Of a DNA stretch of 28,110 nt, positions 1 to 16,986 are shown piece by piece. The notes under the pieces are model-generated. The model saw only the letters and a program-made list of their open reading frames with translations. It ran no database searches and was not told the DNA's origin. Position numbers and translations under genes: made by a program. Source of the DNA: a virus (taxonomy: Duplodnaviria; Heunggongvirae; Uroviricota; Caudoviricetes). Within the stretch, counting starts at the first letter, position 1. The number at the start of each line of letters is the position of its first letter. The stretch lies in IMG/VR virus record IMGVR_UViG_651053022_000001; one strand, given 5' to 3'.

Positions 1-1293
<1,293 letters not shown>

Positions 1294-1410
1294 TACCCAA
1301 TTTTTCTGAATCTAAAAAGCGCCTGCGGGCGCTTTAAGTAGAGGTTTAATCATTTGAAAATAAATGGATTTTATTTTTAAGTGTCCATATAACGTCCATC
1401 TTTGAATGCA

Positions 1411-1450
1411 AAAAGCCCACAGCTTCTATGCTGTGGGCTTTGTTTTTTGG
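1411..1450 (+). terminator. rho-independent terminator downstream of serS
   Basis: GC stem gcccacag / ctgtgggc with 8-nt loop, followed by tttgttttttgg. A weaker hairpin (agcgcc/ggcgct) sits at about 1318-1333. Confidence 0.6.
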
Positions 1451-1470
1451 TGTCCTCATGAGTGAGGGAA

Positions 1471-1504
1471 CCAAAAAGAAAACCCGCAGTTTTTACGCTG
1501 CGGG
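1471..1504 (-). terminator. rho-independent terminator for the minus-strand hok-like transcript
   Basis: Stem cccgcag / ctgcggg; on the minus strand it is followed by ttttctttttgg. Confidence 0.45.
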
Positions 1505-1598
1505 CTTGTTGTTCACGTCAACTGGAAATAGGGTGCCTTTTCGACCTTTACCCTGGCAACCGATTGACGGGGAAGTTGCCTTCCCCGTCGCGGTTTCC

Positions 1599-1739
1599 TT
1601 ACTGCTTACACTGTAAGAACGCCGCAAACTCCGCTCCCCAGAAACTCATCCGTATTTCACACAGCGAACCGTGCAGCATCCAGATGATGAGGATTGCCGT
1701 CACGCAGAATGTGATGGCCGTAAGCGATTTTTGCGACAT
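1599..1739 (-). CDS. Hok/Gef-family type I toxin, 46 aa
   Basis: Hand-translated minus-strand ORF MSQKSLTAITFCVTAILIIWMLHGSLCEIRMSFWGAEFAAFLQCKQ: single TM helix, SLCEIR and E-x-AAF-L-x-C motifs typical of Hok proteins (closest to HokA by memory); AAGGAG Shine-Dalgarno 9 nt upstream. Below the 60-aa cutoff of the ORF track. Confidence 0.75.
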   Translation of the reverse strand: MSQKSLTAITFCVTAILIIWMLHGSLCEIRMSFWGAEFAAFLQCKQ

Positions 1740-1842
1740 AGCGCTTGCTCCTTTTTCGGGGAGGCGCTAACCTATCACTTGCTGAGGGTAGATGGTTAGG
1801 GCCTCGGGTTAACGTTAAAGTTGACTCGGGGCCTTTCCACAT
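1657..1842 (-). CDS. Mok-like overlapping reading frame (modulation of killing)
   Basis: 61-codon ORF in another frame that starts upstream of and fully overlaps the hok-like ORF, as mok does in hok/sok loci. Assignment is by position only; the sequence is not diagnostic. Confidence 0.4.
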   Translation of the reverse strand: MWKGPESTLTLTRGPNHLPSASDRLAPPRKRSKRYVAKIAYGHHILRDGNPHHLDAARFAV

Positions 1843-1930
1843 CTGGCCTTCGGGTATTCCCTCCGACCATCAGCCGAAAGGCACCCGCACGTAATCTATC
1901 GCTTTTTTGTTACTCCGGCAATTCTGCCTG

Positions 1931-2191
1931 TTAATTCTGAGATAAAGGCAAACTCATCTGATTGTTTCCCCTGTGTGAAGCTGGCAGATCATGCCACGGG
2001 ATACCTTCTGAAGAGTGAACGCCGGAGGCGTGTTTTGATGTGAATTTATGGAAAGCTTCCAGTGTTGAGAAGCATACGCCGCATTCCAGATTGTTACACT
2101 GGTAATACTTTTGCCGCACGGTGTTTGAATCATTTTCCGGACGACTGGTGCGGATACGGGCAGATGCGCCACAAAGCGGACAACGGAACAT
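1931..2191 (-). CDS. ogr: Ogr/Delta-family zinc-finger late-gene transcription activator
   Basis: MFRCPLCGASARIRTSR...YYQCNNLECGVCF matches the Cys4 zinc-finger layout of P2 Ogr; strong SD (aagggaggt) upstream; lies directly after gene D as in P2. Confidence 0.85.
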   Translation of the reverse strand: MFRCPLCGASARIRTSRPENDSNTVRQKYYQCNNLECGVCFSTLEAFHKFTSKHASGVHSSEGIPWHDLPASHRGNNQMSLPLSQN

Positions 2192-2231: not shown

Positions 2232-3341
2232 TCACTCTGTTTCCGCTATCCATTCCGGGATTTTTGCCTCAAGCTCAAGCTGCGTGGTAAAACCGCTGTT
2301 ATCAATGGTGTGCTCGGCTTTTGCAATGATCCAGTCCTGATTATCAATCTCGCTTTTAAATCCTGTTACCGTGCCATGCATTTCGGGGTAGAGTTCTGCA
2401 CGTCCACGCGCCAGCGTGATGGAGAATGATGCGGCTCCGCGTTGTAGTTGCTGCCACTTTGCCGCCGCTGCGCGTCTTGCTGCCTGCTCGTTCTGATAAG
2501 TCTTGCGTAACACAAACACATTGCCTTCCGCGCCTTCCATATAATCACCTTCGCGGCTGCTGCTTTTCTCCTTTTTGGGTTTTGGCGGTTTACGGCGTTT
2601 CACGCTGACTTTTTTCTTTTTCCCGTAATTAAGATCAAGCCAGTAAGCGCGTACCCCCGTATACGCTTCGCGGTCAGCAATGCGGAACTGATGGCGATCG
2701 CCGCTGCTGCGTGTGATGGCAAACGATGGCAACGGCTGGCCCTGTGCGTTCACGCCACCGCCGGGCATGATGAATAACAGATTACCGCTTTTTACCGTGG
2801 TGATTGCGCCCAGCATTTCCGCCATGCGCGTAAGGAAGGACATGTCGCTTTCTTCGGTCTGGTCGGCGTGGTCGATTTCGATATCCATCAGCATTTCGCT
2901 GATTTGCGGTTTCAGACCATACCGATGAGCGATGGCGGATACCACACGCTCAACGGTCACATCATGCCAGGACACCTCACGTTTAACGTTAAATTCATCC
3001 CGAAAATCTGCGCTTCTGGCTGAAACAGTCAGCCTGTCCGGCGGTCCTTCGTGAGCGATTTCATCAACAATGTAAGTGCCTTTTTCTGTCAGCGGTTCTC
3101 CTTTCCAGCCAATGAGAACCGTCAGGCGCGCGCCCCGTGGCGGTAGCTGCAACTGACCATCCGCATCATCCAGCGTGATGGTGAGCTGGTCCGCCTCAAA
3201 TCCCCGGTTGTCGGTCAGTGACAGGCTCATCAGGCGCTCTGCCACGCCTGACAGCGTTTTACCCTCCGCGAGAATATCAAAATCCGGCATTTTCACGGGG
3301 TCTGTGCCCTGACTGAGCAATTGCATGGTGGTGTCGGTCAT
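2232..3341 (-). CDS. D: P2 gpD-like tail protein (late control protein D), 369 aa
   Basis: Length and sequence fit the phage late control D family; start chosen at internal Met (MTDTTMQLLSQ...) preceded by GGGAGGG; the track ORF extends to 3473 in the same frame. Confidence 0.85.
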   Translation of the reverse strand: MTDTTMQLLSQGTDPVKMPDFDILAEGKTLSGVAERLMSLSLTDNRGFEADQLTITLDDADGQLQLPPRGARLTVLIGWKGEPLTEKGTYIVDEIAHEGPPDRLTVSARSADFRDEFNVKREVSWHDVTVERVVSAIAHRYGLKPQISEMLMDIEIDHADQTEESDMSFLTRMAEMLGAITTVKSGNLLFIMPGGGVNAQGQPLPSFAITRSSGDRHQFRIADREAYTGVRAYWLDLNYGKKKKVSVKRRKPPKPKKEKSSSREGDYMEGAEGNVFVLRKTYQNEQAARRAAAAKWQQLQRGAASFSITLARGRAELYPEMHGTVTGFKSEIDNQDWIIAKAEHTIDNSGFTTQLELEAKIPEWIAETE

Positions 3342-3498
3342 CTGCTCCCTCCCTGTGCGGCATGGTCGCATGTGCGTGCGGAGGGGGTTACTGCTTTTTG
3401 TTGTCGCCGTGGCGGGAGAACGGCGCAGGGGTGAGATTACGCGCGTGGTGGGTGATGATTGTTGCCGAATCATTTAACGGATACAAGGGGCTGAAGCT

Positions 3499-4683
3499 AT
3501 GAGTGAAACTCGTTTTCATGGTGCCCGTGTCACGGAAAGTACCGACCTGGTAACAGCGATTAATGATGTTGATTCCAGCGTTATCGGTATCGTGGCAACG
3601 GCGGATGATGCGGATGCGGAGCTGTTCCCGCTGAACAAGCCCACACTGCTGACCCGCGTCAATGACGTGCTGGGAAAATGCGGGACTACGGGGACGCTTT
3701 ATCGTGCGCTTAAGGCTATCGCAGACCAGGTGAGCACAAAAGTGATCGTCGTTCGCGTGGCTGAACACAAAGAAGAAGGCGGTAGGACGCAGGATCAACT
3801 GGTTATCGGTGGTTCTGAATCTGACGGCAGCTATACGGGGATGTATGCGCTGCTTGTTGCAGAGCAGGATGAAAGCATCGGATACCGTCCGCGTATTCTG
3901 GCCGCGCCGGAGCTGGACACGGAGGCGGTGACAAAATCCCTGTGCGTGATTGCGGGTAAACTGCGCGCGTTTGTGTATGCCACATGTCATGGTTGTAACA
4001 CGATGGCTGAGGCGATTACCTACCGCCAGAAATTCAACGAACGTGAGGTGATGCTCTTATGGCCTGACTTCATCGCCTACAACCCGAAAAGTGGCAAAAA
4101 CGAAACGTTCCCCGCGCCTGCTTATGCGTGCGGCCTTCGTGCGTACATTGACCATGAGCAGGGCTGGCACAAATCGCTGTCCAACGTTCCGGTTAAAAAT
4201 GTGCTGGGGATGTCGAGGCATGTGTTCTGGTCGTTACAGGCCGAAGACAGTGATGCCAACAGCCTCAACAACAAAGAAATCACGACCATTATTCGTCGTA
4301 ACGGGTTCCGCTTCTGGGGCAACCGCACACCGGAAACGAACGCCTACATCTTTGAGGTGTATACCCGAACCGCACAGGTGCTGGCTGATTCAATTGCGGA
4401 AGCGCAGTTTGAAACCATCGACAGTCCACTGACGCCTGCGAACGTGAAGGATGTTATCAGTGCCATCAGGGCAAAATTGGATTCGCTGGTTACTGCCGGG
4501 AAACTGATTGGCGCGGAGTGCTGGTATGACGTGGTGGATAACGGCACCACGGATTTACGTCAGGGGCGTGTGCGTATTCGCTACAAATATACGCCCGTTC
4601 CCCCGCTGGAAGACATGGAGCTTTACCAGACGTTTACTGATGAATTCTTTGGTCCCGCATTTGCGGTGCTGGGAGGTGCCTGA
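3499..4683 (+). CDS. FI: contractile tail sheath protein (P2 gpFI-like)
   Basis: 394 aa with tail sheath family features; SD aagggg upstream; stop overlaps the FII start (TGATG). Confidence 0.92.
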   Translation: MSETRFHGARVTESTDLVTAINDVDSSVIGIVATADDADAELFPLNKPTLLTRVNDVLGKCGTTGTLYRALKAIADQVSTKVIVVRVAEHKEEGGRTQDQLVIGGSESDGSYTGMYALLVAEQDESIGYRPRILAAPELDTEAVTKSLCVIAGKLRAFVYATCHGCNTMAEAITYRQKFNEREVMLLWPDFIAYNPKSGKNETFPAPAYACGLRAYIDHEQGWHKSLSNVPVKNVLGMSRHVFWSLQAEDSDANSLNNKEITTIIRRNGFRFWGNRTPETNAYIFEVYTRTAQVLADSIAEAQFETIDSPLTPANVKDVISAIRAKLDSLVTAGKLIGAECWYDVVDNGTTDLRQGRVRIRYKYTPVPPLEDMELYQTFTDEFFGPAFAVLGGA

Positions 4684-15087: not shown

Positions 15088-16140
15088 ATGAATCTGGTGA
15101 TGTCAGATATTACCCGCAACAAGCTGGGTTGCTATATGGCGCAGCAGGCGTCGCTTAACAATATCCCGGTATCTGCACTGGTATCGCGATTTACCGTGGA
15201 ACCCGCGGTGCAGCAGCGTTTTGAAAACGCCTCAAAGGAAAGTACCGAATTTACGAAAAGAATTAACGTGATCGGCGTGACCGACCAGAAAGGCGAAAAA
15301 ATCCTCCTGGACACCACCGGGCCAATTGCGCGCACGAATAGCAGTTATGACGGCATCAAACGCCGTAACCCGAATAACGTGATCGATATGAAGTCTCGTC
15401 AGTACCAGTGCGAACAGGTGAACTACGATACCTTTATTTCGTACCCACAGCTTGATACCTGGGCGGCCCACAGCGATTTTCAGTCCCGTATCAGTACACA
15501 GATCGCCCGGCAGGTAGCGCTTGATCGCATCATGATTGGCTTTAACGGCACATCCCACGCCTACGAGTCTGATTTTCACACCAACAAGCTGCTTCAGGAC
15601 GTTAACGTGGGCTGGCTGGAGCACATCAGAACCGATGCCAGCGAGCGCGTAATGAATGACGTGACGCTGACCTCCCGCAACATGGACAACACTGTGGCGC
15701 ACGCGGGTAAGTATGCGAATGCCGATGCTCTGGTACAGGATGCGCGCTCATCCCTGCTGGATGAATGGCACAAGGAAGCTGACGACCTCGCGGTGATTAT
15801 GGGGCGCAACCTGTTTAACTCGCTGCGTCTGCCCGTGCTGAACAGCATCAGCGGCCAGAATCCCAATGCGGAATTACTTGCCGGGCAGCTCATCCTGTCA
15901 TCGCGCACCATTGGCGGGCTGGGCGTGTTCCTTGCGCCGTTCTTCCCGGATGCAACGATGCTTATCACCTCGTTCAACAACCTGTCGATTTACTGGCAGA
16001 AAGGTTCAATGCGTCGCCTGATGAAAGACGAGCCGGAATACAACCGCATCGCCACCTACCAGTCCATCAATGACGCTTATGTCGTTGAAGACTATGGCAA
16101 GTGCGCGATGGTCACTGGCCTGAAGTTCGCCGACAGCTAA
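15088..16140 (+). CDS. N: major capsid protein (P2 gpN-like)
   Basis: 350 aa with several blocks matching gpN as I recall it (FTVEP, GEKI, PFFPDATMLIT, VVEDY); AAGGAG SD. Confidence 0.93.
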   Translation: MNLVMSDITRNKLGCYMAQQASLNNIPVSALVSRFTVEPAVQQRFENASKESTEFTKRINVIGVTDQKGEKILLDTTGPIARTNSSYDGIKRRNPNNVIDMKSRQYQCEQVNYDTFISYPQLDTWAAHSDFQSRISTQIARQVALDRIMIGFNGTSHAYESDFHTNKLLQDVNVGWLEHIRTDASERVMNDVTLTSRNMDNTVAHAGKYANADALVQDARSSLLDEWHKEADDLAVIMGRNLFNSLRLPVLNSISGQNPNAELLAGQLILSSRTIGGLGVFLAPFFPDATMLITSFNNLSIYWQKGSMRRLMKDEPEYNRIATYQSINDAYVVEDYGKCAMVTGLKFADS

Positions 16141-16185
16141 TCAACTCACGGCGGGCATCATGCCCGCCTGTAACGGAGAGAAAAA

Positions 16186-16986
16186 ATGATTACTCCTGCA
16201 CAACAACACTGGCAGAACGTGATGGCACAGCGCGCAGGCCGGGCGAATGAAGGTGTGGACCACGCCGCGTGTACCGCGCATGAAGAGGTGCTGTATCGTC
16301 TGCGTCTGGCACAGGCCAGGCTAAAGGCCATACAGGCCAGAAGCGCGAAAGCCGCCATCAAAAAAGAGTTGTTGCCGGACTTTTCCGGCTGGATTGAGGG
16401 AACGCTGGAGGCTGACGGCGGGCAACAGGACGAAGTAATTGCCACGCTGATGGTGTGGGCGATTGACTGCGGCGATCTTCCGCTGGCGCTGCGTATTGGT
16501 GCATATGTGGTCCGTCACAACCTCATCATGCCGGATAACTTTGGCCGTACTGCTGCCACGGTACTGACCGAAGAAATCTGCAACCCGGTACTGACGCAGG
16601 CTGGGACGGATGCCGACGCGGATTTATCCGCCTTTATCGAACCACTGGACACACTTTGGGAAATTATCGCCAACCAGGACATGCCGGACGAAGTGCGCGC
16701 CAAATTATGCAAGGCGTGTGCCTTTGCCCGTCGTGGCCTGACCGATGCAGACAACATGGCCTCATCACTGAAGCTGCTGCGCGAAGCGATGCACCTGAAC
16801 CCGAACGCAGGTGTGAAACGCGAGATTGCAACCCTTTCCCGCGCCCTGAAAAAAGCCGATTCCGCAGCCGAACCAGAAGACGCCAGCGCACAGCAGGCGC
16901 AGGACGAAAGCAGCAAAAGTAAAAAGACAACGCGGAAGCCTGCAACACGAAAAACCACCGCGACGCAGAAGGCAAAGCGCGGTTAA
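16186..16986 (+). CDS. M: terminase small (endonuclease) subunit (P2 gpM-like)
   Basis: 266 aa; DMPDEVRAKL block and Lys/Arg-rich C-terminus as in gpM. Confidence 0.9.
   Translation: MITPAQQHWQNVMAQRAGRANEGVDHAACTAHEEVLYRLRLAQARLKAIQARSAKAAIKKELLPDFSGWIEGTLEADGGQQDEVIATLMVWAIDCGDLPLALRIGAYVVRHNLIMPDNFGRTAATVLTEEICNPVLTQAGTDADADLSAFIEPLDTLWEIIANQDMPDEVRAKLCKACAFARRGLTDADNMASSLKLLREAMHLNPNAGVKREIATLSRALKKADSAAEPEDASAQQAQDESSKSKKTTRKPATRKTTATQKAKRG

Follow-up and report, generated by a model that had tools for sequence, protein, structure and literature searches.

A predicted hok/sok-type toxin-antitoxin cassette at the serS-side end of a P88/P2-like prophage, and the question of its mok frame

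Between the gene serS and the ogr gene of a prophage, a reading frame of 46 codons raises the question of whether a complete toxin-antitoxin system of the hok/sok type is encoded there, and whether that system is built on the hok/mok/sok plan of the R1 plasmid locus. The window analysed here is the whole stretch of 28,110 nucleotides of the IMG/VR record IMGVR_UViG_651053022_000001 (Caudoviricetes), for which a first-pass annotation, made from the letters of the sequence, had proposed a Hok/Mok-type toxin locus. Pfam, Rfam, folding, covariation and homology support the hok/sok-type core of this proposal, and the locus is likely to be a complete type I toxin-antitoxin cassette with a Sok antisense RNA on the plus strand. 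The mok part of the proposal fares differently and is taken up below.

The window begins with serS (1-1293, plus strand) and is the same as Escherichia coli K-12 through position 1335, with divergence beginning at 1336. The terminator hairpin of serS coincides with a 20-bp att core, AAAGCGCCTGCGGGCGCTTT (1316-1335, plus strand), which was identified by comparison with K-12 and by its repetition in E. coli JJ1887, a genome that matches window positions 1440-1935 at 100%. In JJ1887, a second copy of the 20-mer lies just past the phage integrase gene, and it is because the serS-dmsA spacer of K-12 restarts there that the terminator is regarded as the att core. Farther into the window follow ogr, which encodes an Ogr/Delta zinc-finger protein (1931-2191, minus strand; Pfam PF04606), gpD (2232-3473, minus strand) and a tail sheath gene (3499-4683, plus strand). 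By this comparison, the window from 1336 onward is assigned to the prophage and the hok cassette (~1475-1921) to a position about 140 bp inside it. The locus lies, as annotated, at the serS-side border of the prophage, bounded by the serS terminator (1318-1335) on one side and the stop codon of ogr (1931) on the other. The closest phage genomes, P88, Chuche and Xuanwuvirus (Peduoviridae), show 91-94% identity, and the host element is in good probability a P88/P2-like (Peduoviridae) prophage that integrated in the serS terminator and carries the hok cassette as accessory cargo at its att-proximal end.

The toxin gene, hok, occupies positions 1599-1739 on the minus strand and encodes 46 residues followed by a stop codon (MSQKSLTAITFCVTAILIIWMLHGSLCEIRMSFWGAEFAAFLQCKQ). 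Its product matches the Pfam family HOK_GEF (PF01848) over residues 7-44 of 46 with 29.9 bits (E 4.1e-7), above the curated cut-off of 22 bits, so the frame is an intact member of the Hok family, as first annotated. The peptide is small and hydrophobic and contains the L-C-E motif and the second, C-terminal Cys/Tyr position that characterise the family. Residues L26, C27, E28 and C44 are invariant or nearly so among 17 aligned members of the subfamily, and the same L-C-E and C-terminal Cys positions are highlighted in a published Hok logo (bioRxiv 10.1101/2025.08.07.668861). The Shine-Dalgarno (SD) sequence, which had been described as good, is AAGGAG at 1753-1748 (minus strand), 8 nt ahead of the ATG. 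Thirty-seven non-redundant relatives were aligned (alignment A3); their sources are E. coli, E. albertii, Salmonella, Citrobacter and Klebsiella oxytoca prophages, phage P88 and Sp5. Seventeen of the A3 sequences share this exact Hok peptide; they represent 14 distinct DNAs, and all 15 variable sites among them are synonymous, which argues for selection on the peptide.

The peptide and the kind of element to which it belongs are already known. It corresponds to the RefSeq protein WP_000078916.1, a "Hok/Gef family protein" annotated in hundreds of E. coli genomes, and PGAP annotates the same coding sequence beside ogr in E. coli JJ1887 and other complete genomes. The identical peptide is also the construct 72_1621 of Hok cluster 72 in the catalogue of Escalera-Maurer et al. 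(bioRxiv 10.1101/2025.08.07.668861), in which this cluster, represented by 72_1621 and 72_1589, is abundant. According to the text of that paper, 72_1621 was cloned and was toxic upon arabinose induction, a reading that follows from its naming only 19_179, 60_1482 and 69_1540 as non-toxic among the 45 Hok peptides tested (bioRxiv 10.1101/2025.08.07.668861). Inducible expression, which had been suggested as a check of the frame, has therefore already been reported for the exact peptide, with toxicity on overexpression. The catalogue is one of peptides, and Mok, Sok and mRNA structure lie, according to its authors, outside its analysis. What is new here are the placement of Sok, the tac, fbi and ucb elements of the mRNA, and the absence of mok.

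The full-length hok mRNA is predicted to measure about 412 nt (~1475-1886, minus strand), with its 5' end set by position 1 of the Rfam model RF01794 and its 3' end by the terminator. A putative promoter, read from the sequence at 1893-1921 (minus strand), consists of a -35 element TTGCCG (1921-1916), a 17-nt spacer and a -10 element TAGATT (1898-1893); it agrees with the consensus at only 8 of 12 positions, and its -10 element is conserved in A3 as TAGATT or TAGAAT. A consensus scan gave no promoter at its threshold for either hok or sok, and both promoters rest on homology and conservation. The mRNA has, as had been claimed, a terminator of its own, an intrinsic hairpin at 1507-1480 on the minus strand that is followed by a U-run and is conserved with compensatory changes (helix 20).

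Over positions 1726-1886 of the minus strand, the leader matches the Rfam sok model RF01794 in its full length (model positions 1-157) with 42.8 bits (E 5.4e-8), which is below the gathering score of 59. The controls scored 118 bits (hokC of K-12), 87 bits (an R1-type plasmid locus), 113.5 bits (hokW of Sp5) and 120 bits (an intact hokA), and the low score here indicates that the hok leader of this locus is divergent. In K-12, RF01794 matches the hokC strand, opposite to the annotated sokC; the model is thus understood to describe the hok mRNA leader in sense, and a match on the minus strand is what is expected of a hok locus.

An antisense RNA had been expected on the plus strand around 1750-1880 and had been considered impossible to define from sequence. 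The expected range indeed brackets the RNA placed here, and the second judgement was too pessimistic, since a Sok of 62-66 nt can be positioned at ~1781-1842 (plus strand) by means of the annotated SokC of K-12, which aligns through positions 44-106 of the Rfam model. This predicted RNA would fold into a single-stranded 5' tail of 9 nt and a hairpin of 16 bp, followed by UUUCC (dG -33.7 kcal/mol, z = -5.97). Its putative promoter (1745-1773, plus strand), proposed by homology and conservation, is composed of a -35 element TTGCTC (1745-1750), a 17-nt spacer and a -10 element TAACCT (1768-1773), and agrees with the sigma-70 consensus at only 6 of 12 positions. The complement of the -10 element, AGGUUAG, is invariant or nearly so across the 37 sequences of A3, and TAACCT is also found in hokW/sokW and in hokA. 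In a comparison with known hok/sok loci, by which the sok promoter was to be checked, the -10 element is identical to the hexamer that was altered, exactly and with the primers YO-421/422, in a promoter-less mutant of sokW (Takada et al. 2021, PMC8621323). Promoter, 5' tail and hairpin, the features of a Sok-type cis-antisense RNA, are all present at 1745-1842 on the plus strand, and transcription of this stretch is predicted.

How the two RNAs might interact is suggested by the folding of the hok mRNA, which has a minimum free energy (MFE) of -172.6 kcal/mol (z = -6.47 against shuffled sequences). In the full-length MFE structure, mRNA positions 1-15, the tac element (GGGUGCCUUUCGGCU; 1872-1886, minus strand), pair with positions 341-356, the fbi element (GGUCGAAAAGGCACCC; 1531-1546, minus strand). 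When the mRNA is truncated to position 352 or less, positions 1-11 pair instead with positions 50-59, the ucb element (GAAAGGCCCC; 1828-1837, minus strand); both partners of tac were located by folding and covariation. The predicted Sok-target region (1767-1805, minus strand; helix 5) consists of GAGGC (1805-1801), which aligns with the SD of R1 mok, and of a hairpin (1800-1767) whose loop, UACCCUCAGCAAGU (1790-1777), contains a YUNR motif and is complementary to the 5' tail of the predicted Sok. In the full-length fold, the partner of this region is the 3' untranslated region, and a local hairpin (1739-1769, minus strand; helices 6 and 7), which starts with the in-frame UAG discussed below, encloses the SD and AUG of hok. 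In this hairpin, the anti-SD or dcb element (GCCUC at 1765-1761, and CUCC) pairs with the SD and with the A of the ATG. In the truncated fold, GAGGC (mRNA 82-86) pairs with the GCCUC of dcb (mRNA 122-126), and the probability of the target loop being unpaired rises from 0.24 to 0.88. Farther downstream, folding and covariation define a conserved 3' stem-loop (GACGGGGAAGGCAACUUCCCCGUC; 1566-1589, minus strand; helix 16), which probably forms the protected 3' end of the processed mRNA. The same arrangement of tac/fbi, tac/ucb and GAGG/dcb pairings has been described for the hok mRNA of R1 (PMC9841398).

A structural relay, in which the GAGGC of the trimmed mRNA would bind the anti-SD and so release the SD of hok, with Sok reversing the change, is hinted at by these MFE structures and is unsupported by the accessibilities of the SD. 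The hok SD is unpaired with a probability of 0.34 in the full-length mRNA, 0.24 in the truncated mRNA and 0.35 in the truncated mRNA bound by Sok, so no opening of the SD in the truncated form is seen in the partition-function accessibilities of the thermodynamic model.

The long-range pairings themselves are well reflected in the relatives. Across the 37 sequences of A3, the tac/fbi helix (helix 1 of the full-length structure) is paired in 89.5% of cases and the tac/ucb helix (helix 1 of the truncated structure) in 93%, each with four pairs that changed on both sides. Columns 65-69, in the 5' strand of each helix, covary with the fbi partner and with the ucb partner alike: where column 66 has C or G, its partners in columns 422 and 107 have the complementary G or C. 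Helices 6 and 7 of the SD/AUG hairpin are paired in 99.5% and 88.5% of cases, respectively, and helix 16 of the 3' stem-loop in 90%, with five pairs changed on both sides. The observed covariation score was reached by none of 500 shuffles, and 87-90% of cells were paired in the real structures versus 38-46% in slid controls. The conserved fold-back elements, for which a search had been recommended, are hence both predicted and covarying in 37 relatives, and the coupled covariation is strong evidence that the two predicted conformations of the mRNA are under selection.

By homology with R1 hok/sok, and with the support of folding and covariation, the following mechanism is inferred. The full-length mRNA would be locked by the pairing of tac (1886-1872) with fbi (1546-1531), with the target loop tied up by the 3' region and the SD and AUG of hok by their local hairpin, and would be neither translated nor bound by Sok. 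Slow trimming of the 3' end up to the stem-loop at 1589-1566 would remove fbi, upon which tac could pair with ucb (1837-1828) and the target hairpin would expose its loop. Sok (~1781-1842, plus strand) would then bind this loop through its 5' tail and lead to decay of the mRNA. If the supply of Sok stopped, either by loss of the element or by shut-off of transcription, Hok would be made and the inner membrane damaged.

Several characterised systems can be set beside this one. With hok/mok/sok of R1 (parB), the locus shares a Hok/Gef peptide with LCE and two cysteines and, as predicted here, a folded mRNA of ~400 nt with tac/fbi lock, tac/ucb alternative, GAGG/dcb stem, 3' stem-loop and terminator, as well as a cis-antisense RNA of ~60 nt with 5' tail and hairpin opposite the same part of the leader. 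The two differ in their peptides (30% identity; 46 residues here and 52 in R1), in their leaders (42.8 bits against RF01794 here and 87 bits for the R1-type locus), in the in-frame mok, which is missing here, and in distribution, the type described here being carried by phages and seldom by plasmids. Among characterised peptides, HokA of the E. coli chromosome, whose locus is intact in strain 536, comes closest, at 43% identity. HokA shares MxQK, WM..SLCE and AAFLxCK, has both cysteines hard-coded, and its locus contains the same complement of the sok -10, AGGTTAG; unlike the locus here, however, hokA has a canonical leader (120 bits) and an in-frame mokA of 20 codons.

[quoted passage not shown] 2021, PMC8621323). 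It is likewise borne by a prophage and has the sok -10 TAACCT, whereas its HokW has 51 residues (28% identity), its leader is canonical (113.5 bits) and it is accompanied by mokW (orf74). Sp5 in fact holds two loci, hokW (L106, 3118-3442) and a relative of the window locus (15958-16424), which lies beside lom and is unannotated in AP000363. Orthology with hokW-sokW is ruled out by the 28% peptide identity together with the existence of separate loci within Sp5, and the label "MokW-like host killing", attached to the 46-residue genes, is misleading because hokW is a different locus.

As for the role of the cassette, its classical hok/sok architecture weakly favours retention of the prophage, that is, addiction. 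Chromosomal hok loci of E. coli are reported as inactive in post-segregational killing in earlier work, as cited in a preprint (bioRxiv 10.1101/2025.08.07.668861). The same parts could also serve mainly in the lytic cycle or in defence, with Hok speeding lysis and phage release on induction, as has been demonstrated for hokW-sokW of Sp5, or aborting infection by other phages. This seems rather unlikely, even if the cassette adjoins ogr, the late-gene activator, and deletion of hokW-sokW halves the yield of Sp5 (PMC8621323), since the locus here is no orthologue of hokW and since no link in its sequence connects the transcription of hok or sok to SOS or late-gene control. Furthermore, according to the preprint, hok is not enriched near defence systems (bioRxiv 10.1101/2025.08.07.668861). 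Searches of the literature on hok yielded nothing specific about P2-like phages.

There remains the matter of mok, the part of the first annotation that did not stand. The -1-frame ORF that had been taken for a mok-like frame overlapping hok (61 codons; 1657-1842, minus strand) does exist in the window, but it has the wrong frame and the wrong position for a mok, lacks conservation and is judged no conserved part of the system. The mok of the R1-type, hokC, hokW and hokA loci extends hok in frame at its N-terminal end by about 19-20 codons and starts 8 nt after GAGG. Here, AUC (1793-1791) stands at the aligned start position, and an in-frame UAG at 1769-1767, overlapping the sok -10, ends the frame. 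The distance from the sok -10 to the hok ATG is 10 nt shorter than in hokA (34 vs 44 nt), and it is for this reason that GGUUAG becomes an in-frame UAG. Each of the 37 sequences of A3 has an in-frame stop at a distance of 6-36 nt before the ATG of hok.

When all three frames of the 37 leaders were considered, no leader ORF with a conserved start and frame was found. In 20 of the 37 sequences, phage P88 and Sp5 among them, no ORF runs from the leader across the start of hok, and the sole widespread leader ORF is one of three codons, GUG-AUA-GGU-UAG, located inside the sok promoter. The -1 ORF is closed and has no start codon in P88, Sp5, most Salmonella relatives and the relatives L010, L016, L020, L029, L052, L057, L061 and L088.

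It is highly unlikely that the window holds a canonical hok/mok/sok locus in which ORF 1657-1842, with its AUG at mRNA position 45 and an SD-like GAAGG, acts as mok, so that its translation past the start of hok would make the hok ribosome-binding site accessible, and Sok would prevent that translation. The ORF does read through the hok start in the window, the predicted 3' end of Sok (1842) reaches its AUG, and some -1-frame ORF, with a start at ATG -103 or GTG -100 and an SD-like motif, is kept in 11 of the 20 E. coli-type relatives. Known mok frames, however, are in frame with hok and begin about 19-20 codons upstream, so that this ORF is non-homologous to them; the aligned position reads AUC and is followed by the in-frame UAG; relatives with a closed -1 ORF encode identical or near-identical Hok peptides; and the AUG of the ORF, 103 nt upstream of the hok ATG, is buried inside the very stable tac/ucb hairpin.

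From the sequences compared, it is concluded that ORF 1657-1842 is fortuitous and that the locus belongs to a hok subfamily apparently devoid of mok, the one trait that sets this otherwise ordinary cassette apart. For R1, it is reported that mok must be translated as far as the hok SD (PMC9841398). It is a tenable, if still tentative, proposal that Hok cluster 72 is a natural hok/sok lineage without mok, which would be controlled by the fold-back switch of the mRNA and Sok alone. Such control, free of coupling to a leader ORF, might for instance rely on decay set off by Sok or on ribosomes that initiate directly at the hok SD.

The distribution of the cassette is that of a phage-borne element. 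Of 5426 complete E. coli genomes, 1575 contained a match, as did 198 phage records, and the cassette also occurs in real phages (P88, Chuche and Xuanwuvirus). On plasmids, this type was found in 34 of 72,556 records, versus at least 5000 for the Hok of R1. A profile search of genome contigs with the 17-sequence alignment gave 7 loci only, three of them from assemblies under the names Planococcaceae, Vagococcus and Xanthomonas pisi, probably through contamination. In P2-like prophages of Salmonella, the genes are likewise ordered GpD-Ogr-Hok and are followed by the junction with the host, with up to three copies (one, two or three) in tandem, and an enrichment of hok in prophages and in tandem "islets" has been described (bioRxiv 10.1101/2025.08.07.668861). 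Stx phages carry the type described here as a separate second locus, and the stretch which they have in common with the P2-like prophage corresponds to window positions 1531-1907, bounded by the end of fbi and, on the other side, by a point slightly beyond the hok -10, so that the mobile unit coincides with the functional RNA.

That the locus is an inactive relic, a hok-like remnant without working antisense control or function that travels as a passive passenger of the prophage, would fit the reported lack of post-segregational killing by chromosomal hok loci (as cited in the preprint), the weak promoter matches, the missing mok and an Rfam score below the gathering score, and is nevertheless very improbable in view of the intact ORF with its synonymous-only variation, the two alternative long-range helices kept by coupled compensatory changes, the (nearly) invariant sok -10, the carriage of the cassette by so many complete E. 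coli genomes and by viable phages, the reported toxicity of the peptide (bioRxiv 10.1101/2025.08.07.668861) and a unit shared by P2-like and Stx elements that runs exactly from the -10 to fbi.

A hok/sok-type cassette at this site is of little import beyond annotation: the cargo gene at the serS-side end of the prophage is of a standard type I toxin-antitoxin kind. With its Rfam score below the gathering score, the sok/hok leader escapes standard RNA annotation here, which leaves the predicted Sok of an abundant subfamily of phages without annotation in ~1,500 complete E. coli genomes. If the proposal of a lineage without mok is true, mok would be dispensable for a working hok system, and cluster 72 would be a simpler model for the RNA switch. 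A whole subfamily without mok would thus provide a natural test of the need for leader-ORF coupling in the control of hok.

Besides hokW, the separate hok locus of Sp5, Stx phages carry another hok-type locus, which codes for a 46-aa Hok. In VT2-Sakai/Sp5, this second locus occupies positions 15958-16424 of the compared contig (L106), at 44.5 kb of AP000363, between orf66 and lom, and is 83% identical to the window. It has no annotation in the original records, RefSeq re-annotations label it as 'MokW-like host killing', and its Rfam sok score is only 33-36 bits.

Salmonella P2-like prophages (L111-L113, L114, L095 and L096) contain the whole hok cassette in two or three tandem copies, located immediately after ogr. 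The copies, which recur with a period of ~498 bp (hok at 1505, 2003 and 2501 in L111-L113), have diverged from each other in sequence. Two unrelated type I toxins are found side by side in a genome of Salmonella diarizonae (L115), in which the hok homologue is followed, ~240 bp downstream, by an Ibs-family toxin gene at 2881-2940. Matches to the Hok peptide of the window's subfamily are also filed under a Planococcaceae MAG (L008, 98% identity), Vagococcus sp. (L009, 98%) and Xanthomonas pisi (L012, 72%). The cassette DNA flanking Hok in the first two is near-identical to that of the subfamily, and contamination most likely accounts for all three of these assemblies labelled as non-enterobacterial.

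The spacer that separates the hok terminator from the att core (window 1336-1470) is A/T-rich in part and contains repeats of the motifs GTGTCCATA / ACGTCCATC at 1381-1400, followed by a bidirectional terminator hairpin at 1412-1441. A near-copy of the motifs, AAGTGTCCATAAACTGTCCATC, is present at the integrase end of the same prophage in E. coli JJ1887 (L118, about 1053), and these motifs are probably integrase arm-type sites. In the related phage P88, this spacer is ~560 bp longer than in the window, and the additional DNA includes an 80-aa ORF.

The P2-like JJ1887 prophage has plasmid-like maintenance genes inside it: the genes at 2920-4198 of L117, adjoining the replication endonuclease gene, code for a segregation protein of the ParM type and for a protein of 'plasmid partitioning/stability'. 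In the window, gpD is a single 413-aa ORF (2232-3473), whereas RefSeq annotates the corresponding JJ1887 region (L001, 3793-4646) as an 801-nt 'VgrG/Pvc8 family' CDS and a partial pseudogene, despite sequence identity across the part compared. Unlike in P2, D and ogr in the window are opposite in orientation to the sheath and tube genes.

In the fold of the full-length hok mRNA, the region of the Sok-target loop forms a long-range helix with the 3' untranslated region, pairing window positions of about 1790-1774 with 1564-1549, which correspond to columns 158-174 and 398-414 of A3, the alignment of 37 non-redundant relatives of the cassette. Because five pairs of this helix have changed on both sides within the alignment, the comparison suggests that, in the hok subfamily of the window, selection acts on the concealment of the Sok target itself.
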